DNA of 61,145 bases, taken from positions 1 to 61,145 of the forward strand of contig WYBJ01000071.1 in NCBI GenBank assembly GCA_011525945.1. The letters are read 5' to 3'. This DNA comes from Burkholderiaceae bacterium (GTDB taxonomy: Bacteria > Pseudomonadota > Gammaproteobacteria > Burkholderiales > WYBJ01). Under the pieces are notes generated by a model that searched no databases, was not told the DNA's origin, and saw nothing but the letters and a program-made list of their open reading frames with translations. The translations under genes were made by a program, and so were the position numbers. Shown one piece after another: positions 14,103-45,320 of this stretch. Numbering within the stretch: the stretch's first letter is position 1; every line of letters begins with the position of its first letter.

Positions 14103-14236
14103 GTCGTCACGAGGCGGGCGGCGAATGCCGGTGGCTTGATGATGCGGCGCATATTACTATCGACGCGCTGGAACCGTATTCCCGCGCCACCGCTCGCCGC
14201 GCGGGCGTGCCTTTGCCATCATCTGACGCGCCGACC

Positions 14237-16453: not shown

Positions 16454-17724
16454 CGCGGCTTGCATCGGTTCGCACGCTCGCCGCGCAGGCGAGGCGGATC
16501 ACTTTGCTGCTGCCATCGCTGGCGGCCGGCGGTGTGGCCCGCTCGGTGCTGCATCTTGCCGGTGCGTTCGACGATGCCGGCCGGTCGGTCGATCTCGTGC
16601 TGTGCAAGGCCGAGGGCCCCAATCTCTCGAGCGTGCCCGCCGGTGTCAACGTCGTGACGTTGCGGCGCGAGAGTCCGATCGCCGCTCGCGCGCGGCTGCT
16701 ACGGCTCGATCCGCGCGGCGCGGCGGCGATGGCGCGCCCTGCCTTGTTTGCCTGGCGTCCGGCTCCGGTCCAGCCCTATCTCGCCGACCTGGCGCGCTAT
16801 CTAGATCGGGTACGACCCGACGTGCTGCTGTCGGCAAAGACACCGACAAATCTGCTCGCGCTCTGGGCGCAGCGCGCGAGCGGGGGCGCTACGCGCGTGG
16901 TGGTTGCCGAGCACACGCAGTTGTCGCAATCGATCGCGCGCGAGCGCAAGTGGCGCTGGCGTTACATCGCGCCGTTGGTGGCGCGCGCGTATGCCGGCGC
17001 GGACGCGATCGTGTGCGTGTCGGACGGCGTCGCCGACGATCTCGCCTGTACCGCGCGATTGCAGCGCTCGCGTCTGAGCACGATCTACAACCCGGTCGTG
17101 ACGCCGGAGCTTGCGCTGCGCGCTGCCGAAGCCCCGCCGCATGCCTGGCTCGATGCGAGCGCCGATGCGGGCGTGCGTCGAACCGCGCATCCGCCGGTCC
17201 TCGTCGCCGCGGGTCGGCTGGTCGCGCAGAAGAACTTCGCGCTGCTGCTGCATGCGTTCGCGCGGCTACGCTCGCAGCGCCCGGCGCGTTTGTTGATCCT
17301 GGGCGAGGGGCGCGAGCGGCCGAAGCTGGAGGCGCTCGCTCGCGAGCTCGGCATTGCCGCCGATGTCGCCCTGCCGGGCCATGTGGCCAATCCGTATGCG
17401 GCTTTCGCGCGCGCCAGCACGTTCGTGCTCTCGTCGGATTGGGAAGGATTGCCGACGGTGCTGATCGAGGCGCTCGCCTGCGGTTGTCCCGTCGTGAGCA
17501 CCGATTGCCCGAGCGGCCCGGCCGAGATTCTGCAACACGGGCACTACGGTGCGCTCGTGCCGATGGGAGACGCCACCGCGCTCGCGCAAGCGATGGCGGC
17601 CACGCTCGAGCGACCTCCGGCAGTCGAGCTGCTGCGTGGCCGCGCGCAAGCATTCACGCTGCAACGGAGCGCCCAGCGCTACCTCGAGCTGCTCGATGGA
17701 CTCTTTTTGCGTGCGCCCGCGTAA
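16450..17724 (+). CDS. GT4-family (GT-B) glycosyltransferase
   Basis: E-x7-E motif in SDWEGLPTVLIEALACGCPVVSTD, plus LVAAGRLVAQKNF. ATGA overlap with the upstream stop at 16450-16453. Confidence 0.85.
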   Translation: MTRLASVRTLAAQARRITLLLPSLAAGGVARSVLHLAGAFDDAGRSVDLVLCKAEGPNLSSVPAGVNVVTLRRESPIAARARLLRLDPRGAAAMARPALFAWRPAPVQPYLADLARYLDRVRPDVLLSAKTPTNLLALWAQRASGGATRVVVAEHTQLSQSIARERKWRWRYIAPLVARAYAGADAIVCVSDGVADDLACTARLQRSRLSTIYNPVVTPELALRAAEAPPHAWLDASADAGVRRTAHPPVLVAAGRLVAQKNFALLLHAFARLRSQRPARLLILGEGRERPKLEALARELGIAADVALPGHVANPYAAFARASTFVLSSDWEGLPTVLIEALACGCPVVSTDCPSGPAEILQHGHYGALVPMGDATALAQAMAATLERPPAVELLRGRAQAFTLQRSAQRYLELLDGLFLRAPA

Positions 17725-17744
17725 CGCGTGCGTTTGCTGCTACG

Positions 17745-18821
17745 ATGCCGCGAAAGAGAAGGGCCTTCACCGTGCAGCTGCCCGCCGGGCGCTTCGCAAA
17801 TCTCATCGTCGCTTCGACCTTCTACCACGTCATACTCGCTTGCCTGATCGCGCGCGATGTGCGCTTCGCAGGCGCGAGCGCGCTGGTTCTACACATGGGC
17901 CGCGAGCAGATGGCGGCGTTGTACGAGTCGCTGGCGCGATCGACGGACAGCCCGTTTGCAGCGACGGTCGCGATGCATCCGGGCGAGGGCGGCAAGGCAG
18001 CGCGCGAGCGTGCCCAGGGCCGCTGGCTCGCACGGCTCGATCGAATCGTGCAGAGCGAGCGCGTCATCGTCTTCAACGACCTGACGCCCGACCTGCAGCT
18101 TCTGTGCCGGCGCGCAGAGCAGCGCGGCGCGCGTACGTTCTGTGGCGAGGATGGCGGCGCGGCGTATTCGTCCCGCAGCGCCGCCTCTGCGCGGCGGCGG
18201 CATCTGCAGCGGATGCTGCGTTTCGGCCCCTGGATCGAGAACGTGGTTGCGTCCGGCGCCAGCCGTCATATCCAGACCTATCTCGCGCTCAATGCCGAGC
18301 TGCTGCGCCCCGAGCTCCAGCACAAGCCCGTCTGGGCGTTGCAGGCTCGGGCCATGCCGGAGCTGATCGCGTCGAGCTGGATCGGCGAGTTTCTGGCGCG
18401 CTTCGGGGTTGCGCCGAGCGCGCTCGCGTGCGACGAGCTGTACGTTCCGGCGAGAAATCGGCCGTCCGCGGCACGCGAGCGGGCGTGCTCGGCGCTGTCG
18501 CGGGAGCTGCACGCGGCTAGACAGGCCGGTCTGGATTGCCTGGTGAAGTATCATCCGCGCGACCCGCAGGACCGCCTCGGCGCGCAAGCGCTCGGCGTGC
18601 GCGTGTTGCCGGCGGCGATCCCCGCGGAACTGATCTATCTCGCCAGCGGCGAAAGGCTTCGCCGTGTTCTCGGCGACACGGGCACGACGCTCATGAGCGC
18701 GCGCTGGCTTGCACCGCAGGCGCAGGCGATCTCGGCGCTGGAGCTGTCGGCCATGGATGATCCGTGGTACGCGCGCACGCTCGAGCGGCTCGGGGTGCAG
18801 AGCCTGCATATCCAGGCGTGA
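17745..18821 (+). CDS. hypothetical protein carrying the two short bacterial-sialyltransferase signature motifs (D/E-D/E-G and H-P)
   Basis: 3-prime part of track ORF 16431..18821, starting at ATG 17745. Contains FCGEDGGAAY (residues ~135-137) and LVKYHPRDP (residues ~270-271). No other recognisable domain. Confidence 0.6.
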   Translation: MPRKRRAFTVQLPAGRFANLIVASTFYHVILACLIARDVRFAGASALVLHMGREQMAALYESLARSTDSPFAATVAMHPGEGGKAARERAQGRWLARLDRIVQSERVIVFNDLTPDLQLLCRRAEQRGARTFCGEDGGAAYSSRSAASARRRHLQRMLRFGPWIENVVASGASRHIQTYLALNAELLRPELQHKPVWALQARAMPELIASSWIGEFLARFGVAPSALACDELYVPARNRPSAARERACSALSRELHAARQAGLDCLVKYHPRDPQDRLGAQALGVRVLPAAIPAELIYLASGERLRRVLGDTGTTLMSARWLAPQAQAISALELSAMDDPWYARTLERLGVQSLHIQA

Positions 18822-18860
18822 CCCCCCGTAGCCCGATTCCGACCGGAGTACGACGTCAAG

Positions 18861-19793
18861 ATGCAGTTCACCCCCCTTAGCGAAGCGCCTCTGGGTTTGT
18901 CCCGCGAAGACATCATGCGGACGATGGCGCCGTTCGTGAAGCCGCGCGCCGAGGGTGACGCTGCCGAGTGGGACGCGATCGTGCGCAAACGCAAGAAGGG
19001 CATCGTGCGGCGCGCTCTTCGGCGCCTGCCGCTCGGCTGGCTGCCGTGGCAGCAGCGCCGCATCGGCGAGGTCATCGACGAGTATTCGGCGCTGTGGCCG
19101 CGCATCGGTTTCGACAGCTACGACCCGGGGAAGCCGCCCGCGCGCTACCAGCCTTGGCACTGGGGTGAGGAGCGGCTGCTCGCAAGCGACTTCGGCGGCG
19201 TGCGCTTGCGTCAACTCATGCTGGTGCGGCTGATCGAGCGGCTGAAGCCTGCGAGCGTGCTCGAAGTAGGGTGCGGGCTCGGCATTCATCTCGTCCTGCT
19301 CGCGGGCAGGTTTCCGCAGATCGCGTTTCACGGCGTCGAGCTCACGGCCGCGGGGCACGATGCAGCGCGCGCGTTGCAAGAGCGCAGCCAATTGCCGCAG
19401 AACCTGGTCGCGTTCGCGCCCACGCCGCTCGAGGATACGGCGGCGTTTCGGCGCATCGATTTCCGCCAGGGCAATGCCGCCTCGTTGCCGTTTTGCGATG
19501 GTCGCTTCGATCTCGTCTACAGCGTGCTCGCCCTGGAACAGATGGAGCGCGTGCGTGAACGTGCCTTGGCCGAGGTTGCGCGTGTGACGCGGCGCCACTT
19601 TTTCGGCATCGAGCCGTTTCGCGATGTCAACGACAGCGGCTGGGAGCGGTTCTACGTCCTCGGACGGGACTACTTTCGAGGCAGAATCGCCGACCTGCCG
19701 CGCCATGGGCTCGTGCCGATGCTGGCGTGCGGCGATTACCCGCAGGAGCGCTTTCTCAAGACCTGCGCGGTACTCGCGGAAAAGCGCGCCTAG
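18861..19793 (+). CDS. class I SAM-dependent methyltransferase
   Basis: Motif I VLEVGCGLGIH, post-I HGVELT, and DLVYSVLALEQM. Confidence 0.85.
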   Translation: MQFTPLSEAPLGLSREDIMRTMAPFVKPRAEGDAAEWDAIVRKRKKGIVRRALRRLPLGWLPWQQRRIGEVIDEYSALWPRIGFDSYDPGKPPARYQPWHWGEERLLASDFGGVRLRQLMLVRLIERLKPASVLEVGCGLGIHLVLLAGRFPQIAFHGVELTAAGHDAARALQERSQLPQNLVAFAPTPLEDTAAFRRIDFRQGNAASLPFCDGRFDLVYSVLALEQMERVRERALAEVARVTRRHFFGIEPFRDVNDSGWERFYVLGRDYFRGRIADLPRHGLVPMLACGDYPQERFLKTCAVLAEKRA

Positions 19794-19799
19794 CAGCCG

Positions 19800-20837
19800 T
19801 CACGGCGTGGGTGCGGAAGGATCGAGCGCGAGCGAGGGCGTGGCGCCAGGGCGCAGCGCCCGCCAGTCGACATGCGGGGCGGCCATGCGCAGCAGCGGCG
19901 AGGCGAGCATGCGCATCGCCGCCCACGGTCCCAGCGTACGCCCGATCCGTTTGCACAGGATGAACCAGCGCTTGCCCACTGCGCGCGCGAGCGCGGCTTG
20001 GTCGTAGCGGCGCGCGCGCCGGTTCGCAACGAGCAGATCCGACAGCCACGCCTCGGCCCACTGCACGTCGTCGCGCCCGGCAAGTCCGCCGCGCGAGAGC
20101 AGGTAATGCTTCTCCACGTCGGCCTCGCCGGGTGCAACGCCAAGCGCCTCGAGCTGGGCACGATGGATCGCCATCTTGCGGTTGCGGCCGAGCTCGGGCG
20201 TGAGGCGCGTGGAGCGGCCGGGGTGCTGGCGGCCGCAGACCAGAATTGCCGGCAGGTTCGCCATCGCGTGGCGTTCGGCAAGCCGCACGTGCATGTCATA
20301 GTCCTGCGAGCGCGGGAATTCTTCGCGATAGCGATACTCCCGAAGCACGGCGGTGCGTGCCATGATCGAGCGATTGGACAGGCAGCAGCGGAACAGAAGC
20401 TCGGCGTCGACATCGGGTGCGGCGAGCGGTTGGCGGCGCACGCGCGTCCCGAGCTGCCCGTGCGCGTCCATGAAGCTTCCCCAGCTTCCAACTTGGACAT
20501 GGTCGCGATGGGTATCAAGAAAGTGGACCTGGGCTTGCAGTCGCCCCGGATAGGCATAGTCGTCGCTGTCGAGCAGCGCGATGTATTCGCCGCGTGCCAG
20601 ATCCAAGCCGCGGTTGCGCGTGCGCGGGATGCCGAGGTTGGCGCCGTTCGCCTCGGCCCGCACGCGCGCATCGTGCGCGGCGTAGCGCTCGATGAGCGCC
20701 AGGCTCGTATCGGTTGAGCCGTCGTCGACGAGCAGCAGCTCGAAATCGGTGAATGTCTGGGCGAGGATGCTGTTCACCGCGACGCACAGGTAGTGGCTGC
20801 GGTTGTAGACCGGGATGAATACGCTGACCTTGGGCAT
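19800..20837 (-). CDS. GT2-family glycosyltransferase
   Basis: Begins MPKVSVFIPVYNRSHYL, followed by LLLVDDGSTD and IALLDSDD. The inner ATG of track ORF 19800..21011 was used. Confidence 0.88.
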   Translation of the reverse strand: MPKVSVFIPVYNRSHYLCVAVNSILAQTFTDFELLLVDDGSTDTSLALIERYAAHDARVRAEANGANLGIPRTRNRGLDLARGEYIALLDSDDYAYPGRLQAQVHFLDTHRDHVQVGSWGSFMDAHGQLGTRVRRQPLAAPDVDAELLFRCCLSNRSIMARTAVLREYRYREEFPRSQDYDMHVRLAERHAMANLPAILVCGRQHPGRSTRLTPELGRNRKMAIHRAQLEALGVAPGEADVEKHYLLSRGGLAGRDDVQWAEAWLSDLLVANRRARRYDQAALARAVGKRWFILCKRIGRTLGPWAAMRMLASPLLRMAAPHVDWRALRPGATPSLALDPSAPTP

Positions 20838-21044: not shown

Positions 21045-22010
21045 TCAGGGCCGATGGGCCGGGTTGGGGCACGCGGGATCGTCCTCATTCCAGATTGACA
21101 TTGTCGCAGGGGCGACCGGGAGCTTGCGCCAGCGCCGGTGGTGCCAGCTCCAGAGCGCCGGATGGAGCAGGGCCTGGCGCTCGGAGGCTCGCGCCAGCTG
21201 CTCGATCACGGCTTCGAGCCCGCCGGCATCGCTCGGCAGCGCCGGCTCGATGCGAAACTGCCAGGCGCCGTCGTAGCCGGTGGCGAGTACGGGCAGCACC
21301 GGTGCGCGCGTGTGGCGCGCAAGCTGGGCCGGCCCTGCGGCGAGGCTCATCAATTTGCCGAGAAAGCGTACCGTAACTCCATCCTTCGGGTGCTTCACAC
21401 CCTGGTCCAGGGTAACGAACAGAATACGTCCGCTCGTCACCGCCGCGCGCATCCTGCCATAGGCCCGCAGGCCTTCGTTCGCCGCGATCGCCTCGATGCC
21501 ATAGCGGGCAAAGCCGCGTCCGAGAAATCCCGCCGGCGCCATGCGCGCCTGCCGATACACTACGCTCATCGGCCAGCCCGCCGCGGCCAGCCCGGCGGCG
21601 AGCAGCACGCCGTTGCCGGCATGCGTGCCGAGCAGGATCGCGCCGCGACCGGCGGCGAGTGCCGCCTGCAGGTGCTCTTCGCCCGCAACGACCAGGCGCG
21701 ACCACAGCATGCGCGCGTCGTGCGGCTGCGCGAGCAGCGCCAGGATCTCGATGGCGGCCTGGGCATTGATGTGGTGCGCGTGGCGCAATTGCATCGCCAC
21801 GCGCGCATCACCGACCGGTCGACCGAGTGCGAGCGCCATGTCGTGCGCGCAGCGTTGTCGCCGGCGCCACGCGATGCGATATTCGAGCTCGCCGATCACT
21901 TTGCCGAGCATGGGCGCGTGGCGCAAGCCCGCCACGCGGGCGACGCCTTCGAGGGCGACGAACAGGATACGCCGGCCGCCGCGACGCAGCCATCGTGCCG
22001 TCTTAGCCAT
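21045..22010 (-). CDS. lipid A biosynthesis (LpxL/HtrB)-like lysophospholipid acyltransferase family protein
   Basis: Family-level resemblance: …GRGAILLGTHAGNGVLLA…, FVTLDQGVKHPKDGVTVRFLGK, PAQLARHTRAPVLPV, ALWSWHHRRWR. The catalytic dyad was not verified by eye. Confidence 0.7.
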   Translation of the reverse strand: MAKTARWLRRGGRRILFVALEGVARVAGLRHAPMLGKVIGELEYRIAWRRRQRCAHDMALALGRPVGDARVAMQLRHAHHINAQAAIEILALLAQPHDARMLWSRLVVAGEEHLQAALAAGRGAILLGTHAGNGVLLAAGLAAAGWPMSVVYRQARMAPAGFLGRGFARYGIEAIAANEGLRAYGRMRAAVTSGRILFVTLDQGVKHPKDGVTVRFLGKLMSLAAGPAQLARHTRAPVLPVLATGYDGAWQFRIEPALPSDAGGLEAVIEQLARASERQALLHPALWSWHHRRWRKLPVAPATMSIWNEDDPACPNPAHRP

Positions 22011-23775
22011 GCACGATCGCGCGTGCCGCCGAAGCCGCAGGCAGCGGCGCGGCGGCGCGGACCTCGCGATCCTCCACCCGGTAGAGGCGATCGGCGATTC
22101 TCATGAGCCCCTCCTGGTGTGCGACCGCAAGCATGGTGAGACTGCCTTTGAGGTGGCACAGCGTTTCGAGCACGGCGGCCTGGGCTTGGGCATCCAGATT
22201 GCTGGTGGCTTCGTCGAGGATGAGCAGGCGCGGCTTGTGGATGAGCGCCCGGGCGATCGCCAGGCGCTGGCGCTGGCCGCCGGAAAGTCGCGAGCCGCCT
22301 TCGCCGATGGGCGTGTGCACGCCTTGCGCCATCGCTTCGACGAATTCGAGGGCATCGGCCGCACGCAACGCCGCTCTGAGCGCTTCCTCCGGCACCGCCT
22401 CGCCGAGCGTCACGTTGTAGGCTACCGATTCGTTCAGCAGGATCGATTCCTGCGGCACATAGCCGATCTGGCCGCGCCAGGCGCGAAGATCCATCTCGGC
22501 GAGCGCAACGCCATCGACGAGAATGCGACCGCGGTCGGGTTGCAGCAGTCCGACCACCAGGTCGAGCACGGTGGTCTTGCCGGCACCCGAGGGACCGACC
22601 AGGACGGTGAGTTCGCCCGCGGCAATGACGAACGACTGGTCGCGCACCACCATGGTATCGTCATGGCCGAAGCTCACGTTCTCGAAGCGGATCTCGCGCT
22701 CGAGCTCGACCAGGCGCGAGCCGCCGGCGGATTCGCGTTCATCGTACGCCGCCTCGATCGCCGCGGTTATGGACCAATAGGCGCTCTCGCGCATCGCGAC
22801 CTGCTGGAAGGCACGCTGGCTCTTCGACAGGTAGTTCACGACGCGCGCGAGCAGGAACAGCATCACAAGCAGGTTCGCCATCGGCATCTTCAGTACGACC
22901 AGACCGAGGTAGAAGCCGACGCAAACCATGATCGCGAGCAGCGGCTCCTGCAGCGCGGAGAGCGCCTCCTTGGCGACCACCTGTCGTCGCAGCGCGCGCC
23001 GCAGTTGGCGCGTGAGATCGGACAGCAGCGCCTCGATATGACTTTCGCGCGCCATTGCCTTGAGCGGTTTGGCGGCGGCAAGACGACTGCCGACCGCCGC
23101 CAGCAGCGATTTGAACAGCTCCGTCTGATGGCGACTCGCGCGCCGCGAATTCCGGATCAGGCGGCTCAAGGCGAGCAGCAGCAGTGCGCCCGCGAGCAGC
23201 GCAGCGATGCCCGCCGGGGCCGAAATCGACAGCGCAATGCCGAGATAGATGACCGCGTTGAGCGCGAGCGCCAGCATCTCGGCGGTGTGCTGGAAGGCCT
23301 CGGCGCCGCGCTGTGCCTCGGCGCCGAGCGATGCGGACAGCTTTCCGACCGACTGTTGTACGTAATAGCGCCAGTGCGCATTGGCTACGGCGCGGATCAG
23401 TGCGAGGCGCAGATCCGATGCGATCCGCGCCACGGTATATCCGACCTGTCGGTTGGCGAGCAGGGCGAGCGCCGCTTTGCCCGCGATCAGCAGGACCGCG
23501 AGCACGAGCAGGTTGCGCGGCGTCGCGGGCACGTGCAGGAACTCGGTTACGCGAAGCGCGATGCGTTGCGGCAGACTTGCAGCGCCGTGCGCTTCGCCGC
23601 CGGCGAGCGAGAGCATCGACAGCAGCATCGACAGACCGAGCCCGTCGAGCAAGCCGGCGACGAACACCGCGCCGAGCCCGGCCGCGCTGCGGCCGGGATA
23701 GCGCCGCAGCACGGCGCAGATCATCGCGAAGCTGCCGCGGCTGCGGATCGCGGCAGCAGCAGGCAAGGCATTCAT
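22003..23775 (-). CDS. ABC exporter, fused permease/ATPase (MsbA-like half transporter)
   Basis: N-terminal 6-TM region. Walker A GPSGAGKTT, signature LSGGQRQRLAIARAL, Walker B LLILDEATSNLD. Start ATG overlaps the upstream stop (ATGA 23772-23775). 8-nt overlap with the downstream gene. Confidence 0.88.
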   Translation of the reverse strand: MNALPAAAAIRSRGSFAMICAVLRRYPGRSAAGLGAVFVAGLLDGLGLSMLLSMLSLAGGEAHGAASLPQRIALRVTEFLHVPATPRNLLVLAVLLIAGKAALALLANRQVGYTVARIASDLRLALIRAVANAHWRYYVQQSVGKLSASLGAEAQRGAEAFQHTAEMLALALNAVIYLGIALSISAPAGIAALLAGALLLLALSRLIRNSRRASRHQTELFKSLLAAVGSRLAAAKPLKAMARESHIEALLSDLTRQLRRALRRQVVAKEALSALQEPLLAIMVCVGFYLGLVVLKMPMANLLVMLFLLARVVNYLSKSQRAFQQVAMRESAYWSITAAIEAAYDERESAGGSRLVELEREIRFENVSFGHDDTMVVRDQSFVIAAGELTVLVGPSGAGKTTVLDLVVGLLQPDRGRILVDGVALAEMDLRAWRGQIGYVPQESILLNESVAYNVTLGEAVPEEALRAALRAADALEFVEAMAQGVHTPIGEGGSRLSGGQRQRLAIARALIHKPRLLILDEATSNLDAQAQAAVLETLCHLKGSLTMLAVAHQEGLMRIADRLYRVEDREVRAAAPLPAASAARAIVHG

Positions 23776-24809
23776 AGGCTGAGGAAATGCACGCGCGGCC
23801 CCGCGCGGATCGTCACCGGCAGGGCCGGGTCGACATCGAACGACTCGCCGTCCAGAGTGTAGCTCGACAGTCCCGAAGCGCCCAGGGCATCGCAACGGCC
23901 GCTCAGATACCCTCGTTCGGCATCCATGGCGGGCGTGAACCGGCCAGTGATCAACCACGGCAGCCGCGCCCAGAAACTCGGGCCGCGTGCCGCCACGGCC
24001 GTGAAGCGCACACCGCCGTGGCCATGCCGAGCGTACGGGTCGAGAACGCCCTGACGCTTCTGCAGCGTGCTGGCGATGAACCAGCGAGCGGGCTTCGCCA
24101 GCATTTCACGCCCAGGCACCTCGACGCGCAAATCATCCAACGGCGGTTCGCGCATGCCGAGCATGGCGGGCAGCGCCAGCGCAGCGAGGCTGCACGCGGT
24201 GCCAAGATCGCTCTGGCGCAGTCGTCCGCTGCCGTCGCTGCGATGGCGGTGACACGCCCGGATCGCGCGGTCGACGAGTCCGGCTGCGAGAAAAAAACCA
24301 TGTCGCGCCGGCGCCTTAGGCTGCTCGATGCGCAGCACCTGCCGTACTGTGACACCGAACGGTACACCATCGCGCCAGCGCTCGAGCGCGCGCTCGAGCT
24401 TCGGCAGTACGTCGCCGCGCCCGCCGAGGTCGCCCGCCGTGAGATTGGTGCGACCGCCGCCGAGCAGCAGCAGCCGGGGTTGCACGACGCCGGCGGGAAG
24501 CAGGGCAAGCCGGTCCACGAAGGCCTGTACCGTGCCGTCGCCGGCGAGGAGAAAAACCGTCTGTTGGTCACGCCGCAGGATGAGGTCGAGCGTCGCGGCG
24601 ATGCCGCTCGGGTCGGCGGCGTGAATCACTTCGATACCGTGCGCGCCGGCGAGCCGGGCAGCGTGCTGCGCGAGGCGGTCGCGCGCGGCACTGTGGCTCA
24701 TCGGGTTGACCACGAGACAGGGCCTATGCGGTGCGGATTGCGGTGGTCGCGCCGTCGCCGCGGCCCGCGTGCTCACGGCGTTCGCGGCAGGCCGGGATTT
24801 TGCGCCCAT
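23772..24809 (-). CDS. DAG-kinase catalytic-domain (YegS/BmrU-like) lipid kinase
   Basis: Motifs CLVVNPMS, FLLAGDGTVQAF (GDGT) and LLLLGGGRTNLTAGDLG. An alternative start, GTG at 24776, would form a GTGA overlap with the upstream stop. Confidence 0.78.
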   Translation of the reverse strand: MGAKSRPAANAVSTRAAATARPPQSAPHRPCLVVNPMSHSAARDRLAQHAARLAGAHGIEVIHAADPSGIAATLDLILRRDQQTVFLLAGDGTVQAFVDRLALLPAGVVQPRLLLLGGGRTNLTAGDLGGRGDVLPKLERALERWRDGVPFGVTVRQVLRIEQPKAPARHGFFLAAGLVDRAIRACHRHRSDGSGRLRQSDLGTACSLAALALPAMLGMREPPLDDLRVEVPGREMLAKPARWFIASTLQKRQGVLDPYARHGHGGVRFTAVAARGPSFWARLPWLITGRFTPAMDAERGYLSGRCDALGASGLSSYTLDGESFDVDPALPVTIRAGPRVHFLSL

Positions 24810-25951
24810 CGTTGCATCGCCGATCGTTGCGCCGGCGTCGCCTTCGCGTTGCGCCACAGCTCGGCCAGCGCTGCGAAGAAACTGCGCCGCCCGGTCGCGT
24901 GATAAGGAGCGTCTCGTGGCAGCAGCTCGCTCAGGCGCCGGTGCGCTCTGCCGAGATTGTGATAGGGAAGCGCGGGGAACAGGTGATGCAGTGCGTGATA
25001 ACGCAGGCCGACGGGAAAGAGCAGCACCGTGAGCCAGGTCTGACCGGTGATGTTGATGGAGTCTTGCATCTGTTCGAGGTGACTCATGCGCTCGCCGCGG
25101 TTGCCGTAGCGATGGGCGGCGAGATTGCGTACCCAGTTGAGCCCGAGTGCGCCGGCGACCAGCAAGTAACCCATGAAGATGTCTGCCACGCCGACGATAC
25201 CGGCAGCGAGCAGGCCGGCGAGGCTCGCCAGGTAGGCGAAAGAAATCGCCTCCACGATGACGAGATGGCGCTCGTCGCGATGCGGGAAGCGTTTCGCGTA
25301 GTAGGGATTCGACACCGCCGCCGAGGCGCGCGTAAGCACCCATTCGCGCAGCCTGCGATTGAGCCAGGACAGCGGCCCGAGCAGGCCCAGGCGTACGAGC
25401 ATGAAAAGCGGCAGCAGCGGAACCTGGGCGAGGTACTTGATCGTTTCGCGAAGCGGCGAAGCTCCCAGCGGAAGGTATTCGCCGTCCTCGGGTGTGCCGA
25501 AATGGCGGGCGTCGTGGTGGTCGGCATGGTTGCGATAGAAGATCCACGGCATGAGGAACGGGATGCCCACGGCGAGGTTCCACGCAGGCCCGAACCATCG
25601 CGCCTGATCGGGGCGCATGTGCACCAGCTCGTGGATGAACGTTCCGCTGCGGAAAAACAGCAGGATGCTCGCGACGTACGCTACCGCTTGGACGAGGCTC
25701 CACGTCGGGGCGAGAAAGTATACGGCCGTGAAACCCCAGGCTGCCGCGCTGGTCAGCGAGAAGTCGATCCAGTAGATGGGCGCGGAGCGCGCGTAGAGGT
25801 CACTCACCGCGGCGCGCGCTTGCTCGAACCAAGCGGGCATTTCACGGGCCTTCCCCCCGACCTGGCCTGCATCGGGAGGAGCGCCGTTGCCCGCGCCCTG
25901 TTGGCCGGGACCGCCTCCGGCGCGGCTACTTTCACTGACAACCTGCGGCAT
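24773..25951 (-). CDS. membrane fatty-acid/sphingolipid desaturase-hydroxylase family protein
   Basis: Three His boxes: HELVH, HADHHD and HALHHLF. Several TM segments. The start could be the inner ATG at 25840. Confidence 0.85.
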   Translation of the reverse strand: MPQVVSESSRAGGGPGQQGAGNGAPPDAGQVGGKAREMPAWFEQARAAVSDLYARSAPIYWIDFSLTSAAAWGFTAVYFLAPTWSLVQAVAYVASILLFFRSGTFIHELVHMRPDQARWFGPAWNLAVGIPFLMPWIFYRNHADHHDARHFGTPEDGEYLPLGASPLRETIKYLAQVPLLPLFMLVRLGLLGPLSWLNRRLREWVLTRASAAVSNPYYAKRFPHRDERHLVIVEAISFAYLASLAGLLAAGIVGVADIFMGYLLVAGALGLNWVRNLAAHRYGNRGERMSHLEQMQDSINITGQTWLTVLLFPVGLRYHALHHLFPALPYHNLGRAHRRLSELLPRDAPYHATGRRSFFAALAELWRNAKATPAQRSAMQRWAQNPGLPRTP

Positions 25952-26032
25952 AGCGTTGCGAGGATACCGTCATGGCCGACCCAGAACAAGCGCGACGGGC
26001 TGTTTTCAGGTGCGGCGGCGCGATTGTATAGG

Positions 26033-26050
26033 TACAATCTCGCGTCGAAT
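26033..26050. promoter_or_regulatory. AT-rich inverted repeat (operator-like) in the divergent promoter region between the two lipid operons
   Basis: gattgta-tagg-tacaatc has perfect 7-bp arms. It lies in the 134-bp gap between the divergently transcribed genes starting at 25951 (-) and 26086 (+). It stands out against the GC-rich background. Confidence 0.4.
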
Positions 26051-26085
26051 TTCGGCGGAACCATGAATCTGCGGGCGCGGGGGGT

Positions 26086-27957
26086 GTGTCGTTGCGCGAA
26101 GACAGGAGCAATAAGGCCAAAGAGGAGGCAACCGCTACCGTCAGCGGGATTGCGCTACGCCGAGCAGATTTCTCGACCTTGACCGAAGCGCTCGATTACG
26201 CGGCACAAGGTTGCACCGGCTTCAATTTCTACGACGGCAGGGGCGAGCTCGCCTGCGTTCTGCCGTATCGTGAGCTGCGCGAGGAGGCAATTCGCCTCGC
26301 ACGCCGGCTGGCGGCATTCGACCGTGGCAGTCGCGTCGCGCTCGTGGCGCACACACATCGCGACTTCGCGGTGATGTTTTTTGCCTGCCAGTACGCGGCG
26401 CTCGTACCGGTGCCGTTGGCGGCGGCAATTCACCTCGGCGGGCGCAACGCCTATATCCGGCATCTGCGCGAGCTGGTACGCGATTGCGGCGCCGTGGCCG
26501 CGTTTGCGCCGGCCGATTTCGTCGGGATGCTGCACGAGGCGGCCGGCGATCTCGCCGTGGCGCATGTCGGCACGCTGGAGGATTTCATGGCGCTGCCGGC
26601 AGGCACCGAGCTGCCGGCGCCGCCTGCGGCACACGAGCTCGCCTACCTGCAATACACCTCGGGCAGCACGCGTTTCCCGCGCGGGACGATGATCACGCAG
26701 GCCGCCGCGATGGCGAACCTGGAAGGCATTTTCAACCACGGGTTCGAGATCGCTGCGGACGACCGCTTCTGCTCCTGGCTACCCTTCTATCACGATATGG
26801 GTCTGGTCGGAATCGTGCTCGGCTGCGTCGCCACGCAGCGCTCGGTGGATTATCTCGCGACGCGCGATTTCGCCATGCGACCGCGCCTGTGGCTGAAGCT
26901 CATTGCGCAGAACCGGGGCACCATCTCGTTCAGCCCGCCGTTTGGCTATGCGCTGGCTGCTCGCCGCGTGCGACCGAAGGATGCCGACGGGCTCGATCTG
27001 TCGAGCTGGCGCGTCGCGGGCGTCGGCGCCGAAATGATCCACCCCGAGTGGCTGACGAACTTCGCCGAAGCCTTGGCGCCCGCGCGCTTCGATCCGCGCG
27101 CATTTCTACCCTGCTACGGCATGGCCGAGTGCGCCCTGGCGGTGAGCTTCGTTCCCGTCGGCGGCGGGTTCGAGATCGATTACGTCGATGCCGAGCGCTT
27201 GGCGCGCTCCAATGAGGCGATGCACGCATCCGCTGGCGCCTCGGAGCGGAAACGTTCCGGCTTCGTCAATTGCGGCAAGGCGCTGCCCGGTTTCGAAGTC
27301 GAGATTCGCGATGAAGCGGGCCGCCTCTTGCCCGATCGCCGCTGCGGGCGCATCTTCTTGCGCGGGTCGAGCGTCATGTCGGGTTATTTCGGCAACCCGG
27401 AGGCGAGCCGCGAAGTGCTTTCGGAGGATGGATGGCTCAATACCGGCGACCTCGGTTACCGTGTGGATGGGGCGCTCTACCTTACGGGTCGGGCGAAAGA
27501 CCTGCTGATCATCAACGGGCGCAACGTCTGGCCGCAGGACATCGAGCACCTTGCCGAGCAGCAGCCGGAGCTGCGGGCCACAGATACGTCGGCGTTTTCG
27601 ATCGTGAGCGGCGAGGGTGGTGAGGCCGCGGTACTGGTGGTGCAGTGCCGGGAAATGGACTCGGCCTCGGCGGCCTCGCTCGCGCGCCGCCTGCGCCATT
27701 CGGTCCAGGCCGAGTTGGGTATCGAGTGTCTGGTCGATGTCGTCCCCCCGCACACCCTGCCGCGCACCTCGTCGGGGAAGCTCTCGCGCAGCTCCACGCG
27801 CAAGCAGTTCCTCGAGCGCCACGGCGTCGAGCGTGCAAGCGATCTGGCGTGGATTGGAAAGGGTTTCTGCGCCCATCACGCCAGCGCGGGAGCATCGCCT
27901 GTCAGCGCTCGTGGCGCCGATCAGGAGCCTGGCAGCGCCGGCATCAATGCGACATGA
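26086..27957 (+). CDS. fatty acyl-AMP ligase / acyl-ACP synthetase (adenylate-forming enzyme)
   Basis: Motifs YLQYTSGSTRFPRG, NTGDLGY and LPRTSSGKLSRS. GTG start as given in the track. A GAGGAGG at ~26121 leaves the exact start uncertain. Confidence 0.85.
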   Translation: MSLREDRSNKAKEEATATVSGIALRRADFSTLTEALDYAAQGCTGFNFYDGRGELACVLPYRELREEAIRLARRLAAFDRGSRVALVAHTHRDFAVMFFACQYAALVPVPLAAAIHLGGRNAYIRHLRELVRDCGAVAAFAPADFVGMLHEAAGDLAVAHVGTLEDFMALPAGTELPAPPAAHELAYLQYTSGSTRFPRGTMITQAAAMANLEGIFNHGFEIAADDRFCSWLPFYHDMGLVGIVLGCVATQRSVDYLATRDFAMRPRLWLKLIAQNRGTISFSPPFGYALAARRVRPKDADGLDLSSWRVAGVGAEMIHPEWLTNFAEALAPARFDPRAFLPCYGMAECALAVSFVPVGGGFEIDYVDAERLARSNEAMHASAGASERKRSGFVNCGKALPGFEVEIRDEAGRLLPDRRCGRIFLRGSSVMSGYFGNPEASREVLSEDGWLNTGDLGYRVDGALYLTGRAKDLLIINGRNVWPQDIEHLAEQQPELRATDTSAFSIVSGEGGEAAVLVVQCREMDSASAASLARRLRHSVQAELGIECLVDVVPPHTLPRTSSGKLSRSSTRKQFLERHGVERASDLAWIGKGFCAHHASAGASPVSARGADQEPGSAGINAT

Positions 27958-28181
27958 GGGATAGGGCCGAGGTGGAGGAGGTCGTCCGGCAGGCGTTGCG
28001 TGCCGTGCGCACCGAAGAGGTCGATGTCGGCGCGGGCGATGCTCTCGGGCTTGATTCGACGCAGGCGATGGAGCTCATCATGCAGATCGAAGAACGCCTC
28101 GACATCTCCATCCCGGTCGACACGCTGGCCGACTCGCGCACCTTCGATCAGCTTTGCAGCGGCATCATGCGGCTCGACTAG
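27954..28181 (+). CDS. acyl carrier protein
   Basis: 75 aa, with the phosphopantetheine site in ALGLDSTQAMELIMQIEERL. The ATG overlaps the ligase stop (ATGA 27954-27957). Confidence 0.8.
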   Translation: MRDRAEVEEVVRQALRAVRTEEVDVGAGDALGLDSTQAMELIMQIEERLDISIPVDTLADSRTFDQLCSGIMRLD

Positions 28182-28185
28182 GTAA

Positions 28186-29382
28186 GTGAGTCTGCTCGAC
28201 AAATTCGAGGCACTGCGATCGCTGCAAATGGCGCTGGCGCACGCGGCGAGCGTGCCGGCGGTTGCCACTCCGATGGACGAAGTGCACTCGGCGCGGGAAG
28301 CCACGGTGCAGGGACGCCGATTGTTGCTCGCCGGCAGCAACAACTATCTCGGCCTCACCTTCGATGATGCCTGCCGCGCGGCCGCGATCGCGGCGATCGA
28401 AGCCTACGGTACGGGCAGCACCGGCTCGCGCATGGCCAGCGGCAACTATCGCCTACACCGCGGCCTGGAACGTGCGTTGGCCGATGCGTTCGGTTGGCCG
28501 GCCGGGATTGTCTTCTCGACCGGATACCAGGCGAATCTCGGTACGCTCTCGGCCCTGGGCGGTGCGGGCGATTACCTCCTGGTCGACAGTGACAGCCATG
28601 CCAGCATTCACGACGGCTGTCGCCTGAGCGCGGCGACCACGATCCGCTTTCGCCACAACGATCCGGACAATCTCGACCGGCGGCTCACGCGTCTGGGCGA
28701 CGAGGCCCGGCGCACGCTGATCGTGGTGGAAGCGCTCTACAGCACGCTGGGCGACCGCGCGCCGCTCGATGAGATCGCGGACATCAAGGCGCGCCACGGC
28801 GCCTGGCTGATCGTCGATGAAGCGCATTCGTTCGGCCTGTTCGGTGCCCGCGGGGTGGGATTGTGCGAGGAGCTCGACCTGCTCGATGAGGTCGACTTCA
28901 TCGTCGGCACCTTTTCCAAGAGCCTGGGCGGGGTGGGCGGGTTCTGCGTCAGCCGGCATGCCGAGTTCGAGCTGTTGCGCATGGCAAGCCGCCCCTACAT
29001 CTTCACCGCCTCACCGGCGCCCGCGGTGATCGGCGCCACGCGCGAGGCGCTGCGACGCGTGCTCGCCGGTGCCGACCTGCGGCGGCGCCTCTGGCGGCAC
29101 GCGCATCGCCTGTATGGCGAGCTCGACAAGCTGGGTTTCAGTCTCGGCTCGACAACCCCCGGGCCCATCGTCGCCCTGGTGTACGCCGAGCGCGACACCG
29201 CCATCGCCCATTGGCAGGCGCTGCTCGATGCCGGGATCTACACCAATCTCATGGTGCCGCCTGCGACACCCGGCGGGCTGAGCGTGGTGCGCATAAGCCT
29301 CTCCGCCGCGCACACCGACGAGGACATCGCGTACATTCTACACAGCCTGGAAGCGCTTGCCCCCGCGCGCGTGGCGACTTGA
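28186..29382 (+). CDS. alpha-oxoamine synthase (serine palmitoyltransferase / 8-amino-7-oxononanoate synthase family)
   Basis: Motifs GSNNYLGL, VDEAHSFG and the PLP-lysine motif GTFSKSLGGVGG. The gene starts 4 nt after the ACP stop. Confidence 0.88.
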   Translation: MSLLDKFEALRSLQMALAHAASVPAVATPMDEVHSAREATVQGRRLLLAGSNNYLGLTFDDACRAAAIAAIEAYGTGSTGSRMASGNYRLHRGLERALADAFGWPAGIVFSTGYQANLGTLSALGGAGDYLLVDSDSHASIHDGCRLSAATTIRFRHNDPDNLDRRLTRLGDEARRTLIVVEALYSTLGDRAPLDEIADIKARHGAWLIVDEAHSFGLFGARGVGLCEELDLLDEVDFIVGTFSKSLGGVGGFCVSRHAEFELLRMASRPYIFTASPAPAVIGATREALRRVLAGADLRRRLWRHAHRLYGELDKLGFSLGSTTPGPIVALVYAERDTAIAHWQALLDAGIYTNLMVPPATPGGLSVVRISLSAAHTDEDIAYILHSLEALAPARVAT

Positions 29383-29421
29383 AGCAATCGATGCGATCCG
29401 GCTTTGCGCAATTCGCGGTGC

Positions 29422-30186
29422 TCACCGGCCTTGCCAGCGGGGCTTGCGCCGTTCTTTGAACGCGATCGCGCCTTCCTTGGCGTCCTCGCTCGCATAAAGA
29501 GGCGCACACACCTGCTTGCCGACTTCGAGCGCGGCATCCAGGCCCATATTCATCGCGTGCCGTACCACCTGACGCACCGCGATTACGGAGAGCGGCGCGC
29601 ATTGGACGATCTCGTCGGCGATCGCAAGCGACGCCTCGATCAGATCGGCGCGCGCGACGATGCGGTTGACGAAGCCGATCTCGTAGGCGCGTTGCGCACT
29701 GATGGTTCTGCCCGTGAGCATCAGTTCGAGCGCGAGCCGGCTGCCGATCATGTGGATGAGCGGCGGCGACCAGGCCACACCGCGTCCGACCTTGGGTTCG
29801 GTGATGCCGAAGGTCGCGCTATCCGCCGCGACGCACAGGTCGCACATCTGCGCAAAGACCCAGCCGCCCGCGATCGCCGCGCCGTTGACTGCGGCGATGA
29901 CGGGTTTGCTCACGTGCATGTTCTCGCCGAGTATGGGTAAGGGGGGCATCGGTTGATCGGCGCGCGCCGCAATCTCCTTCAAGTCGCGGCCGGCCGAGAA
30001 CGCCTTGTCGCCGGCGCCGGTGAGTACCGCCACCCGTAACTGCGGATCGGAATCGAAGCGCTTGAACGCCTCTTCCAGCTGCGTTGCGGTGGCCGTGTTG
30101 ATGGCATTGCGCTGCTCGGGGCGATTGATCGTGATGAGCGCGCAAGGACCGCGCGTTTCAAACAGGATCTCGGCTGGGGTCTGCAT
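29422..30186 (-). CDS. enoyl-CoA hydratase/isomerase (crotonase) family protein
   Basis: Begins MQTPAEILFETRGPCALITINRPEQRNA, followed by GDKAFSAGRDLKE and AAVNGAAIAGG. AGGAG RBS before the ATG at 30186. Confidence 0.85.
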   Translation of the reverse strand: MQTPAEILFETRGPCALITINRPEQRNAINTATATQLEEAFKRFDSDPQLRVAVLTGAGDKAFSAGRDLKEIAARADQPMPPLPILGENMHVSKPVIAAVNGAAIAGGWVFAQMCDLCVAADSATFGITEPKVGRGVAWSPPLIHMIGSRLALELMLTGRTISAQRAYEIGFVNRIVARADLIEASLAIADEIVQCAPLSVIAVRQVVRHAMNMGLDAALEVGKQVCAPLYASEDAKEGAIAFKERRKPRWQGR

Positions 30187-36366: not shown

Positions 36367-39126
36367 TCAGCCTCGCCGCCCTGCCGCGATATACAGCCTT
36401 GCGCGCACCGCTGCGTCGTCGGGGTCCAAAGGCGCATCCCCGCGAATGGCCGCAAGGCCGCGCGAGCGTTCTTCGGCGATGCCCACGCGCAGCGCCTCGT
36501 AGCTGGGATCGAGCGCCAGAGCGTCACGCCGCGCACCGCGCCACCGCTGCCAGCGCAACTGCCAGGCGTGCGGTATCGGCACCTTACGCACCGCCACCTC
36601 GGCGACCAGCAACAGCAGTGCCGCGAGGAAGAACGGCCACCACAACTGCGAGCGCAAGCCTCTTGGCTGCGCGGGCGGCGCGGTCACCACGCCCAGTGCC
36701 GCACTGGAAAGATCGAGCAGGCGCCCGCCGCCGACGCCGGCAATCTCGCTTAGCAGCCTTCGATCCACTCCCAGGTCGAGGTACTCCGAGGAATACGGAA
36801 CCGCAAGTCCGAAGGTTTTCGGCCCCACCGGAACCTGCCCGTCGCGCCCGCTCACGGTGATGTAATAGCGCCCGGCGCGAGGCACTGGGAATTCGCCGTG
36901 ATAGCGCCCGGGCGCCACTTGTTCGAGCGCCAAACGCCGCGTTTCCTGCGAGGGCTCGATCACCGCCGCCTGCAGAGCTAGGCCGTTGACGAAGCGCTCG
37001 TCCCGATCCAGCACATCGACATCGATCACGCCGCGCCCGCCATGCCACTGGAATTGCGGTACGATCGCCTCGTGGCCACGTGGACGCATGGTCCAGCGCG
37101 CGAGCTGGGCGACGAAGCGCCCGAATTGCGGCCACTCGACCCAGCGCCGACCCCAGCGCCCGGACAGATCGGAGGTGAACGCAGCGGTCTTGCCCAGGCC
37201 GTAGCGCCACGACACCAGCAGCGGGTCATCGTCGCGCGCCGCCAGCAGCACCTGGGCGGCGGGTTTCGGAAATACGCGCTGGTAGCCGCCGAGAATCGGG
37301 AAATTGTCGGCCGCCAAGCCCTGGATCGGCTCGCCCGCATGCACGAGTCGCGGCCGGATGTCACCTTCGACCACCAGATCGCGCGTGAGCGCCAGCGTCT
37401 CGCTGGTAAAGATGCGCGGAACGTTGGCGGGGTCGGCGCTGTGGTAGAAGCGGCCTTTACCGAGCGCGGCGAGCCTCGCCATCAATTGCTGGTCGGCGTC
37501 GGCTCCCATGGCCACGGTGGAGACGGTGATGCCGTCGGCGGCGATACGCTGAGCAAGACCGTCGAAATTCTTCTCGCCCTCGGTGAGGCCGTCGGAGAGC
37601 ACGATCAGGTGCTTCACCTTTGCCTGTTCGGTGCGCATGACGCGATACGCTTCTTCAAGAGCAGGGTAGATGTCGGTCCCGCCGCCGACCTTGAGGTCGC
37701 GCAGCTTCTCGGTGATCGGCCGGCGCATCGCCGCCTCGGTCGGCGGCACGATCCATTCGCGACCGCTATCGAATGCGAGGATGCCGACCCGGTCGAGCCG
37801 GTTGAGCAGATCGATCGACAGCAGCGCGGCGCGCTTGGCGATGGCGAGCTTGTCCTCGCCTTGGACCTTGGTGCCCATGCTGCCGGAGCGATCGAGCACG
37901 AAGATCACCGCGAGGCTCGGAATCCTCACTTCGGTCTTCACCTGCATGGTCACCGGCAGCAGGCGCTCCACCGGTGTGCCGAAATAGCCGCCGGCGGCAT
38001 AGCTGCGCTCGCCGCCGATCTTCACCACGCCGCCGCCCGCATCGCGGACGTAGTGTTCCAGCATTTCCATCTTCGCGAGCGAGAGATCGAACCCCGAGAC
38101 ATTGTTGAGGACCACCAGCTCGTAATCCACCAGTTCGTGCATGCTCGCCGGCAGTTGGTCGGCGCGCACCTCGTCTACCGCGAGGCCCTGCGCCCTGAGC
38201 GCAGCACTCAGGTAGCGGCCGGATTCGGCATCGCCGATCGCGTGTAATACCCTGGGCGCACCGGTCACACGCACGAACGCCTGGTAGCGGTTGTTCTCCG
38301 GCTCGCCGTCCGCGTCGGCGTTGACGATGGCCTCGAACGCGTGCAGCCCCGGCTTATCCGCCAGTTGTACGAACGAGTAGGCATTGGCGCCCGGCTCGAG
38401 CGCGATTGCACCTTCGTGCAGCAGCGCACCGTTACGCATGACGGCTAGATGGGCGCGGCCCGCCGCGCTGCTCTGAATGACCGTCCGGACGCTGAACGGC
38501 TCGTGCAGGCGCACCTGCGACGGCGCGGACAAGCTCTGCACGTAGACTTCGCGCCTCGCCGCGGGTCGTTCGAGCGCGATCGTATGAATCTGTACGCCGA
38601 GCGTGCGTGCGACGGCGGCGGCCGCACGTGCGTCGCCCTGATTCTCGCGCCCGTCGCTCAGCAGCACGATGCGCCGATCGCTCCCGGGCGGAAACGCGCC
38701 GACCGCCACCTCGATGGCACGGCCGATGTCGCTGCCCGAGCGCTGCACGTCGGCTGTGATCTGTTCGAGTGGCTCGGTGCCGCTGCGAACCAGGGATTCG
38801 AGCGCGGCCTCCGCGCCGAACACCACCAAGCCGACGCGCGCCGGGGTTCTCCGGGCGCGGTTGACGAAAGCAAGCGCCGCGGCGATCGACTCCCGGCCGA
38901 TACTGTCAGAGACGTCGAGCGCGAACACCACGTCGGTATGGCGTGCGCTGGAGCCCGCGAGCGGCCCGGCGAGGACAATTGTCAGCGCAGCGAGTGCGGC
39001 TACCCGCAGTGACCCCGCGGCCACGAACCGGAAAGTCGCGCCGCGCACGCGCCAGATGCTCACGCCGACCAGCAGCGCCGCCAGCGCGATAAGCCAGAGC
39101 CATGCCGGTTGCGCGAGCTCAGGCAT
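36367..39126 (-). CDS. large membrane-anchored double-vWA protein (Bat-type operon member)
   Basis: N-terminal TM segment. Two MIDAS motifs (FALDVSDSIG and FVLDRSGSMG). C-terminal TM segment. Confidence 0.8.
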   Translation of the reverse strand: MPELAQPAWLWLIALAALLVGVSIWRVRGATFRFVAAGSLRVAALAALTIVLAGPLAGSSARHTDVVFALDVSDSIGRESIAAALAFVNRARRTPARVGLVVFGAEAALESLVRSGTEPLEQITADVQRSGSDIGRAIEVAVGAFPPGSDRRIVLLSDGRENQGDARAAAAVARTLGVQIHTIALERPAARREVYVQSLSAPSQVRLHEPFSVRTVIQSSAAGRAHLAVMRNGALLHEGAIALEPGANAYSFVQLADKPGLHAFEAIVNADADGEPENNRYQAFVRVTGAPRVLHAIGDAESGRYLSAALRAQGLAVDEVRADQLPASMHELVDYELVVLNNVSGFDLSLAKMEMLEHYVRDAGGGVVKIGGERSYAAGGYFGTPVERLLPVTMQVKTEVRIPSLAVIFVLDRSGSMGTKVQGEDKLAIAKRAALLSIDLLNRLDRVGILAFDSGREWIVPPTEAAMRRPITEKLRDLKVGGGTDIYPALEEAYRVMRTEQAKVKHLIVLSDGLTEGEKNFDGLAQRIAADGITVSTVAMGADADQQLMARLAALGKGRFYHSADPANVPRIFTSETLALTRDLVVEGDIRPRLVHAGEPIQGLAADNFPILGGYQRVFPKPAAQVLLAARDDDPLLVSWRYGLGKTAAFTSDLSGRWGRRWVEWPQFGRFVAQLARWTMRPRGHEAIVPQFQWHGGRGVIDVDVLDRDERFVNGLALQAAVIEPSQETRRLALEQVAPGRYHGEFPVPRAGRYYITVSGRDGQVPVGPKTFGLAVPYSSEYLDLGVDRRLLSEIAGVGGGRLLDLSSAALGVVTAPPAQPRGLRSQLWWPFFLAALLLLVAEVAVRKVPIPHAWQLRWQRWRGARRDALALDPSYEALRVGIAEERSRGLAAIRGDAPLDPDDAAVRARLYIAAGRRG

Positions 39127-41883: not shown

Positions 41884-41896
41884 CGCGCTACCCCGT

Positions 41897-42894
<998 letters not shown>

Positions 42895-42898
<4 letters not shown>

Positions 42899-45314: not shown

Positions 45315-45320
45315 GCCTTG

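Follow-up and report, generated by a model that had tools for sequence, protein, structure and literature searches.

What do the three adjacent genes at positions 26086–29382 of contig WYBJ01000071.1, from an uncultured Burkholderiales bacterium, make together, and from which substrates? They encode an acyl-AMP ligase (aasR), a small acyl carrier protein (ACP; acpR) and an oxoamine synthase (spt), and they were studied within a stretch of 61,145 nt and 67% GC, referred to here as the window. An earlier note on this DNA, drawn from the sequence alone, had read them as a translationally coupled module for long-chain-base synthesis. Our analysis indicates that the triad is very probably an AasR-AcpR-Spt module, which carries out the first and committed stage of sphingolipid synthesis in bacteria, and that it sits within a putative sphingolipid synthesis and export island of approximately 26 kb. 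Padilla-Gomez et al (2022; PMC9386255) described the triad as the hallmark by which sphingolipid loci of alpha-, beta-, and gammaproteobacteria are known, which agrees with the statement in the earlier note that a dedicated ligase and a dedicated ACP feeding Spt mark such loci in proteobacteria.

All three open reading frames (ORFs) of the triad are intact, and each aligns with its homologues over the full length. Longest-ORF coordinates were misleading at this GC content, as illustrated by the long overlapping ORFs at 9537–11285, 16431–18821, and 14045–16453, and were replaced by a gene map based on codon usage. Both junctions described in the earlier note are present: the aasR stop and the acpR start share an ATGA tetranucleotide at precisely the bases that had been given, and the GTG start of spt follows the acpR stop after the 4-nt spacer GTAA. 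The overlap and near-overlap of the reading frames would suit co-translation in fixed proportion, and their spacing suggests translational coupling of the triad.

By homology, AasR is a fatty acyl-AMP ligase (FAAL). It is composed of AMP-binding and AMP-binding_C_2 domains and scored 766 bits on the NCBIfam FAAL model NF006624 (cutoff 600), in accordance with the acyl-AMP ligase identity proposed earlier. Its best match among solved structures is the FAAL of E. coli (PDB 3PBK; 554 bits over residues 21–581); the further top PDB matches are all FAALs, and the next-best are FAAL domains of polyketide synthases (PKS). The protein is also 48% identical to AasR of E. coli BL21(DE3) (ECD_02851). The last ~37 residues (~587–623) form a poorly conserved tail. 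Its start is uncertain and corresponds either to GTG 26086 or to TTG 26092; homology to relatives begins at residues 3–16.

AcpR consists of a PP-binding domain (Pfam, E = 5e-10) in which the DS phosphopantetheine site noted earlier is found as LGLDS, with Ser35 encoded at 28056–28058. It fell below the cutoff of all AcpP equivalog models. In an alignment of 61 AcpR sequences, a set that included no AcpP, the DS site and the motif MEIEDxLDxSxP were conserved, also in the window AcpR; the protein is 45% identical to E. coli B AcpR (ECD_02853) over 42 aa. The GTG at 27972, favoured by codon usage, was considered as the acpR start and rejected, since the N-termini of two relatives (MRDKAAVEEVV in L003 and MKDRASVERVV in L004) align from ATG 27954. 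Based on this alignment, the ATGA overlap stands. The AcpRs of the window, L003, and L004 also lack four residues in the loop that precedes the DS site (28032–28043 region), which are present in the other 58 aligned AcpRs.

Spt adopts the Aminotran_1_2 domain architecture, and the pyridoxal phosphate (PLP)-lysine motif GTFSKSLG reported earlier spans residues 241–248 (28906–28929), with the PLP-binding Lys245 encoded at 28918–28920; a PPATP loop is encoded at 29257–29271. Spt has its PLP fold, Schiff-base lysine motif, and decarboxylative Claisen chemistry in common with BioF, Kbl, ALAS, CqsA, and cysteate acyltransferase. The earlier note had proposed a comparison of the synthase with serine palmitoyltransferases (SPTs) and with several of these enzymes, and the SPTs scored best. 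The protein reached 561.9 bits on NCBIfam NF047599, the serine palmitoyltransferase equivalog (cutoff 500), and remained below the cutoffs of the models for BioF (TIGR00858; 327.7 versus 426.45 bits), Kbl (270 versus 460 bits), ALAS (204.5 versus 338.6 bits), and CqsA (201 versus 428 bits). Its best solved relatives are the SPTs of Sphingomonas wittichii (PDB 2x8u; 387 bits) and S. paucimobilis (373 bits); other oxoamine synthases in the PDB scored 114–197 bits, with BioF and Kbl chains at no more than 197 and cysteate acyltransferase at 162. Spt is 48% identical to the Spt of E. coli BL21 (ECD_02854). In a neighbour-joining tree, the window Spt fell within a clade that three assayed SPTs delimit, and E. 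coli BioF, at 30% identity, was a distant outgroup; placement inside the BioF clade, which the earlier note had raised as fatal to its reading, was thus not what we observed. An alignment with the S. paucimobilis, S. wittichii, and E. coli B enzymes showed that the catalytic residues His159, Asp231, His234, Lys265, and Arg390 (S. paucimobilis numbering) are all kept in the window Spt. Taken together, the passed SPT model, the failed models of the other oxoamine synthases, and the position among assayed SPTs identify the synthase as Spt-type.

The arrangement of the triad was compared with that in relatives by a genome scan with one genome per species, which yielded 80 loci onto which all window proteins were mapped. 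The closest Spt, 87% identical, originates from a Burkholderiales metagenome-assembled genome. In 38 fetched loci, aasR, acpR, and spt follow each other without an intervening gene, and this uninterrupted order holds for all but one (L010) of the fetched relatives in which Spt is at least 65% identical and all three genes were found. These relatives belong to the Burkholderiales (Variovorax, Ramlibacter, Piscinibacter, and Methylibium), the Steroidobacteraceae, Panacagrimonas, and Solimonas. Among cultured relatives, Variovorax sp. N23, Piscinibacter koreensis, Ramlibacter alkalitolerans, and Panacagrimonas perspica carry the same genes. The genes aasR and acpR are separated by cerR in Wenzhouxiangella, Halomonas, E. 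coli B, and most alphaproteobacterial loci. At the acpR/spt junction, 30 of the 38 loci have a 4-nt overlap of stop and start (NTGA); the spacing is a 4-nt gap in the window and a 0-nt gap in the closest relative. The window, L004, L025, and L031 have an ATGA overlap of aasR and acpR; a small number of further loci may have a GTGA overlap, and the gaps in other loci reach 278 nt. The recurrence of order and junction across loci confirms that the arrangement of the triad is more than chance.

A second ligase gene, ~30–36% identical to AasR, is the direct upstream neighbour of aasR, at ~2 kb, in many of these loci (L007–L009, L013–L020, L022, L023, L025, L027, L031, L033, L051, and L074). The window has no second ligase upstream of aasR, and a divergent desaturase operon occupies that place.

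The rest of a sphingolipid pathway is recognisable around the triad by homology and co-location (Table 1). CerR is 34% identical to the epimerase-family gene product of the E. coli BL21 spt cluster. The bacterial ceramide synthase (bCerS), the Tam41-like protein, the 17772–18821 protein, and the N-terminal half of the ELM1-like protein gave no Pfam or NCBIfam match; bCerS was assigned from its similarity to E. coli YghO, whereas the assignment of the Tam41-like protein came from a predicted structure. The AlphaFold2 model of the latter had a predicted local distance difference test score (pLDDT) of 88.5, and its top Foldseek match was the Tam41 CDP-diacylglycerol synthase (PDB 6ig4, E = 3e-8). 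The island contains two CDP-alcohol phosphotransferase paralogues, of which only the 11014–12108 copy is matched in alphaproteobacterial loci.

Based on these assignments, we propose the following course for the pathway. AasR would use ATP to load a free long-chain fatty acid onto the phosphopantetheine arm of AcpR Ser35. Through a Schiff base at Lys245, Spt would then condense the acyl-AcpR with L-serine, releasing 3-oxosphinganine, CO2, and holo-AcpR; this step is proposed by homology to the assayed enzymes of E. coli B, Caulobacter, and S. wittichii (PMC9386255). N-acylation of this base by bCerS and reduction of its 3-oxo group by CerR would give dihydroceramide. The ceramide kinase and the counterparts of the Cpg proteins (the Tam41-like protein, the CDP-alcohol transferases, the two nucleotidyltransferases, and the phosphoesterase) would build an anionic head group of the phosphoglycerate type, and the ABC exporter and the LptF2/LptG2 pair would be expected to move the finished lipid toward the outer membrane.

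Several points weigh against this assignment, or against the coupling of its genes. The chain length of the fatty acid, the amino acid, and the thioester donor are those that homology suggests. The window Spt has a valine (residue 357, 29254–29256) where Arg378 of S. paucimobilis SPT makes contact with the carboxylate of serine, although this is weak evidence. Rhodobacterial SPTs show low rates of activity with acyl-CoA as well (PMC9386255). The overlap of aasR and acpR is absent even from the closest relative, L003, where a 65-nt gap separates the two genes; because the overlap is not kept there, coupling at this junction may be incidental. Finally, a scan of 25700–29700 identified no sigma-70-like promoter site, and terminator-like hairpins in that region were no commoner than in shuffled sequences; therefore, transcription units could not be read from the sequence.

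The alternative that survives best, which we nevertheless consider decidedly unlikely, is that the synthase uses glycine, alanine, or cysteate and makes a non-canonical 1-deoxy or sulfonated long-chain base. The valine at the Arg378 position could be taken to favour it, as could the score of 416 bits on the alphaproteobacterial SPT model, which is under the cutoff of 670, and the amino-acid specificity of the superfamily is not reliably readable from sequence. However, the Arg378 position is a leucine in E. coli B Spt, an enzyme that formed a labelled 3-oxosphinganine-like product from L-[14C]serine, with palmitoyl-AcpR as the preferred donor (PMC9386255), and we therefore dropped the valine as a sign of a non-serine substrate. 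With valine in the window and leucine in the assayed E. coli B enzyme, Arg378 is not universal among SPTs that use acyl-ACP. The window Spt also passed the cutoff of NF047599, a betaproteobacterial SPT equivalog, and cysteate acyltransferase scored 162 bits versus 387 for SPT. The earlier note had held that the amino acid is unreadable from the sequence by eye. This caution remains apt for the synthase viewed by itself, but the island context, with bCerS, CerR, the ceramide kinase, and the head-group genes, narrows the choice toward serine. Because the kinase and the phospho-head-group chemistry would need the C1 hydroxyl of ceramide, which only serine supplies, this context argues for serine as the amino-acid substrate.

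It is also conceivable, but highly unlikely, that Spt uses mainly acyl-CoA and that AasR and AcpR serve another acylation in the island, for example that by the LpxL-like acyltransferase. LpxL-family enzymes use acyl-ACP donors, and bacterial SPTs accept palmitoyl-CoA in vitro. On the other hand, the three rhodobacterial SPTs that were assayed strongly preferred acyl-AcpR (PMC9386255), and it is spt, not the LpxL-like gene, that acpR overlaps in 30 loci.

Very improbable is a role of the triad as the starter module for a secondary metabolite, such as an amino-polyketide or a CqsA-type quorum signal. FAAL-ACP pairs commonly start lipopeptide and polyketide pathways, in line with the PKS-derived FAAL domains among the solved matches of AasR, but no PKS, nonribosomal peptide synthetase, or tailoring genes were found nearby, the score on the CqsA model was under its cutoff, and in the window as in dozens of relatives the module lies among the genes for bCerS, CerR, the ceramide kinase, and LptF2/LptG2. 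A synthase of the BioF (8-amino-7-oxononanoate synthase) or Kbl type, with the ligase and ACP supplying pimeloyl-ACP or another short acyl group, has a negligible probability. The fold and PLP motif common to the superfamily and the BioF label of many close homologues could be taken to favour it, but the sub-cutoff scores on both models, the outgroup position of BioF, the lack of bio genes among the window genes scanned, and the ceramide genes as neighbours count against it. The label in question, “8-amino-7-oxononanoate synthase”, is carried in the Joint Genome Institute (JGI) annotation by many homologues 73–89% identical to the window Spt (P0002, P0006, P0009–P0012, and others), which NCBI names serine palmitoyltransferase; the JGI label is probably wrong.

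Table 1. Positions, strands, and basis of assignment of the features discussed, in window coordinates.
Feature	Position	Strand	Basis or detail
Nucleotidyltransferase, CC_1152 / CpgD type	3183–4013	+	Pfam NTP_transferase and NTP_transf_3; synteny
MobA-like nucleotidyltransferase, CC_1153 type	4155–4940	-	Pfam NTP_transf_3; synteny
bcerS, putative bacterial ceramide synthase, YghO / CC_1154 type N-acyltransferase	4937–6058	-	42% identity to E. coli BL21 YghO over all 380 aa, E = 3e-91
Second CDP-alcohol phosphotransferase paralogue	6055–7269	-	Pfam PF01066; adjoins bcerS in Burkholderiales loci
lptG2 and lptF2, second LptF/LptG permease pair	7266–8333 and 8330–9520	-	Pfam LptF_LptG, E = 2e-57 and 2e-60; syntenic in many loci
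HIT protein, CC_1157 type	9537–9980	-	Pfam HIT; synteny
Calcineurin-like phosphoesterase, CC_1158 type	9983–10942	-	Pfam Metallophos; synteny
CDP-alcohol phosphotransferase, CC_1159 type	11014–12108	+	Pfam PF01066; synteny
Tam41-like nucleotidyltransferase, CC_1161 type	12093–13055	+	Predicted fold; adjoins spt in alphaproteobacterial loci
cerR, NAD(P)-dependent epimerase/dehydrogenase-family reductase, CC_1164 type	13113–14102	-	Pfam Epimerase; spt-cluster synteny
ELM1/GtrOC1-like protein, 738 aa	14237–16453	+	ELM1/GtrOC1-type domain in C-terminal half; no family match for N-terminal ~380 residues
GT4 glycosyltransferase	16504–17724	+	Pfam
Protein without family match	17772–18821	+	Position in accessory block
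Methyltransferase	18861–19793	+	Pfam
GT2 glycosyltransferase	19800–20837	-	Pfam; common to window and L004
LpxL/PatA-family acyltransferase	21045–22010	-	Pfam; 8-nt overlap with exporter
ABC exporter, MsbA-type	22003–23724	-	Pfam ABC_membrane and ABC_tran
Ceramide kinase candidate, CC_1160 / CpgB type	23772–24713	-	Pfam DAGK_cat, 24.7 bits (cutoff 23.6); conserved position between desaturase and ABC exporter
FA_desaturase-family enzyme (desaturase/hydroxylase)	24773–25951	-	Pfam
Four-gene operon (desaturase, kinase, ABC exporter, LpxL-like)	21045–25951	-	Divergent from aasR
aasR, fatty acyl-AMP ligase / predicted acyl-AcpR synthetase	26086–27957	+	623 aa; GTG start, TGA stop 27955–27957
AasR core motif YTSGSTRFPRG	26653–26685	+
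AasR core motif YGMAE	27115–27129	+
AasR core motif PRTSSGKLSR	27760–27789	+
ATGA overlap of aasR stop with acpR start	27954–27957	+	Direct sequence reading
acpR, probable dedicated acyl carrier protein	27954–28181	+	75 aa; ATG 27954–27956, TAG stop 28179–28181
acpR TAG stop, 4-nt spacer (28182–28185), spt GTG start	28179–28188	+	Direct sequence reading
spt, predicted serine palmitoyltransferase	28186–29382	+	398 aa; GTG start at 28186
Large VWA protein	36367–39126	-
BatA-VWA protein	39119–40978	-
DUF58 protein	40975–41883	-
MoxR AAA ATPase	41897–42898	-
Three further genes without assignment, upstream in the Bat/MoxR-type operon	within 36367–47501	-

The triad is the already named AasR-AcpR-Spt module, annotated as such by the NCBI pipeline, in a minor variant of gene order in which cerR is not placed between aasR and acpR. 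The same three families with the same proposed chemistry are found in Caulobacter crescentus as AasR (CC_1165), AcpR (CC_1163), and Spt (CC_1162), within the CC_1152–CC_1168 cluster for ceramide and ceramide diphosphoglycerate (PMC9386255; PMC11324152). As judged from published domain descriptions and alphaproteobacterial synteny rather than from the Caulobacter sequences themselves, counterparts are present in the window for CC_1152, 1153, 1154, 1155/1156, 1157, 1158, 1159, 1160, 1161, and 1164. Of these, CC_1152 (CpgD) was assigned as a phosphoglycerate cytidylyltransferase (PMC12275187), and a role of LptF2/LptG2 in sphingolipid transport was shown in Caulobacter (bioRxiv 10.64898/2026.04.12.717747). 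Whereas cerR lies between aasR and acpR in Caulobacter, it is 12 kb away in the window. Counterparts of CC_1166 (flippase), CC_1167, and CC_1168 (LptC2) were not recognised among the window genes scanned, and their absence has also been reported for beta- and gammaproteobacteria. Conversely, the window differs from Caulobacter in its MsbA-type ABC exporter, LpxL-like acyltransferase, desaturase-family enzyme, ELM1-like protein, GT4, GT2, methyltransferase, and second CDP-alcohol transferase.

The cluster of E. coli BL21(DE3), which Padilla-Gomez et al studied (PMC9386255) and which E. coli K-12 lacks, comprises yghO, aasR (ECD_02851), cerR, acpR (ECD_02853), spt (ECD_02854), lptG, and lptF. 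It resembles the window in its adjacent LptF/LptG pair and in an Spt that lacks the arginine of the Sphingomonas enzyme at position 378, but it has cerR between aasR and acpR, and the stretch that was fetched contains neither a kinase gene nor genes for a head group. The SPT of S. wittichii (PDB 2x8u) aligns end to end with the window Spt, and its acpR (Swit_3899) is directly upstream of spt, as in the window; in contrast, aasR is elsewhere in the genome in Sphingomonadaceae (PMC9386255), and Arg378 is present there where the window has valine. Nitrosomonas eutropha, of the same bacterial class, has the same four gene families by published description (Neut_0458–0461, aasR-epi-acpR-spt; PMC9386255, Fig 9 legend), but with the epimerase gene between aasR and acpR, unlike the window.

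The genes between cerR and aasR form an accessory block and a four-gene operon that is oriented divergently from aasR. An identical four-gene order was found in Variovorax, in Janthinobacterium, and in a marine metagenome contig, in two of the three adjoining LptF2/LptG2 and a Tam41-like gene. The operon is carried by L083, L084, L085, L004, L010, L046, L048, and L063, in the last five beside spt; its overlapping junctions are kept across several genera, mostly beside other sphingolipid genes. Homologues of the ELM1-like protein follow the LpxL-like gene in Wenzhouxiangella loci. Judged by their position, the 14237–20837 block and the ABC exporter and LpxL-like genes may be part of the sphingolipid pathway. 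In the literature searched, neither these genes as sphingolipid genes nor the operon was mentioned.

Locus L004 (CAYWSG010000021.1; Spt 81% identical) is the only fetched locus with the divergent arrangement of the window, in which two GT2 genes, the LpxL-like, ABC exporter, kinase, and desaturase genes are opposite aasR-acpR-spt. Its record is labelled “uncultured Enterobacteriaceae”, a name suggestive of an error in binning or taxonomy.

Tentatively, we suggest a beta/gammaproteobacterial variant of the pathway, supplied by the triad, with an end product more similar to lipid A than the Caulobacter lipid is, a doubtful but possible extension of the scheme proposed above. In that case, the four-gene operon could hydroxylate, phosphorylate, O-acylate, and flip the ceramide, and the ELM1-like protein, GT4, GT2, and methyltransferase could decorate it. 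The result would be a lipid with a third acyl chain and sugars that is handed to LptF2/LptG2.

Other features of the window are distinct from the island. Just outside it, we observed an ankyrin-repeat protein (2264–2941, minus strand), a type uncommon in free-living bacteria. A Bat/MoxR-type operon (36367–47501, minus strand) is unrelated to the triad. At 53584–55311 (plus strand), two ORFs in the same frame match the Pfam “UGSC family” at profile positions 1–91 and 101–171 and are split by one in-frame TGA (53899–53901) in the context GVGA*GACTP. This region probably encodes a single selenocysteine-containing protein; a hairpin of the selenocysteine insertion sequence (SECIS) type downstream of TGA 53899 folds no better than shuffled sequence.

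The triad adds an uncultured Burkholderiales bacterium to the likely sphingolipid producers and, through its relatives, shows that cerR has been lost from its place between aasR and acpR in a whole sub-clade, which spans Burkholderiales, Steroidobacteraceae, and Nevskiales (Spt at least 65% identical). Of practical use, the homologues labelled “8-amino-7-oxononanoate synthase” by JGI can be re-read as SPTs. The island is a more useful lead than the triad itself, as a compact and apparently complete gene set for an anionic sphingolipid and its export. Within it, the ABC exporter and the LpxL-family acyltransferase accompany the ceramide kinase across several genera; if these proteins act on sphingolipids, they would be relevant to the flipping of such lipids across the inner membrane and to the extent to which sphingolipids can replace lipopolysaccharide.

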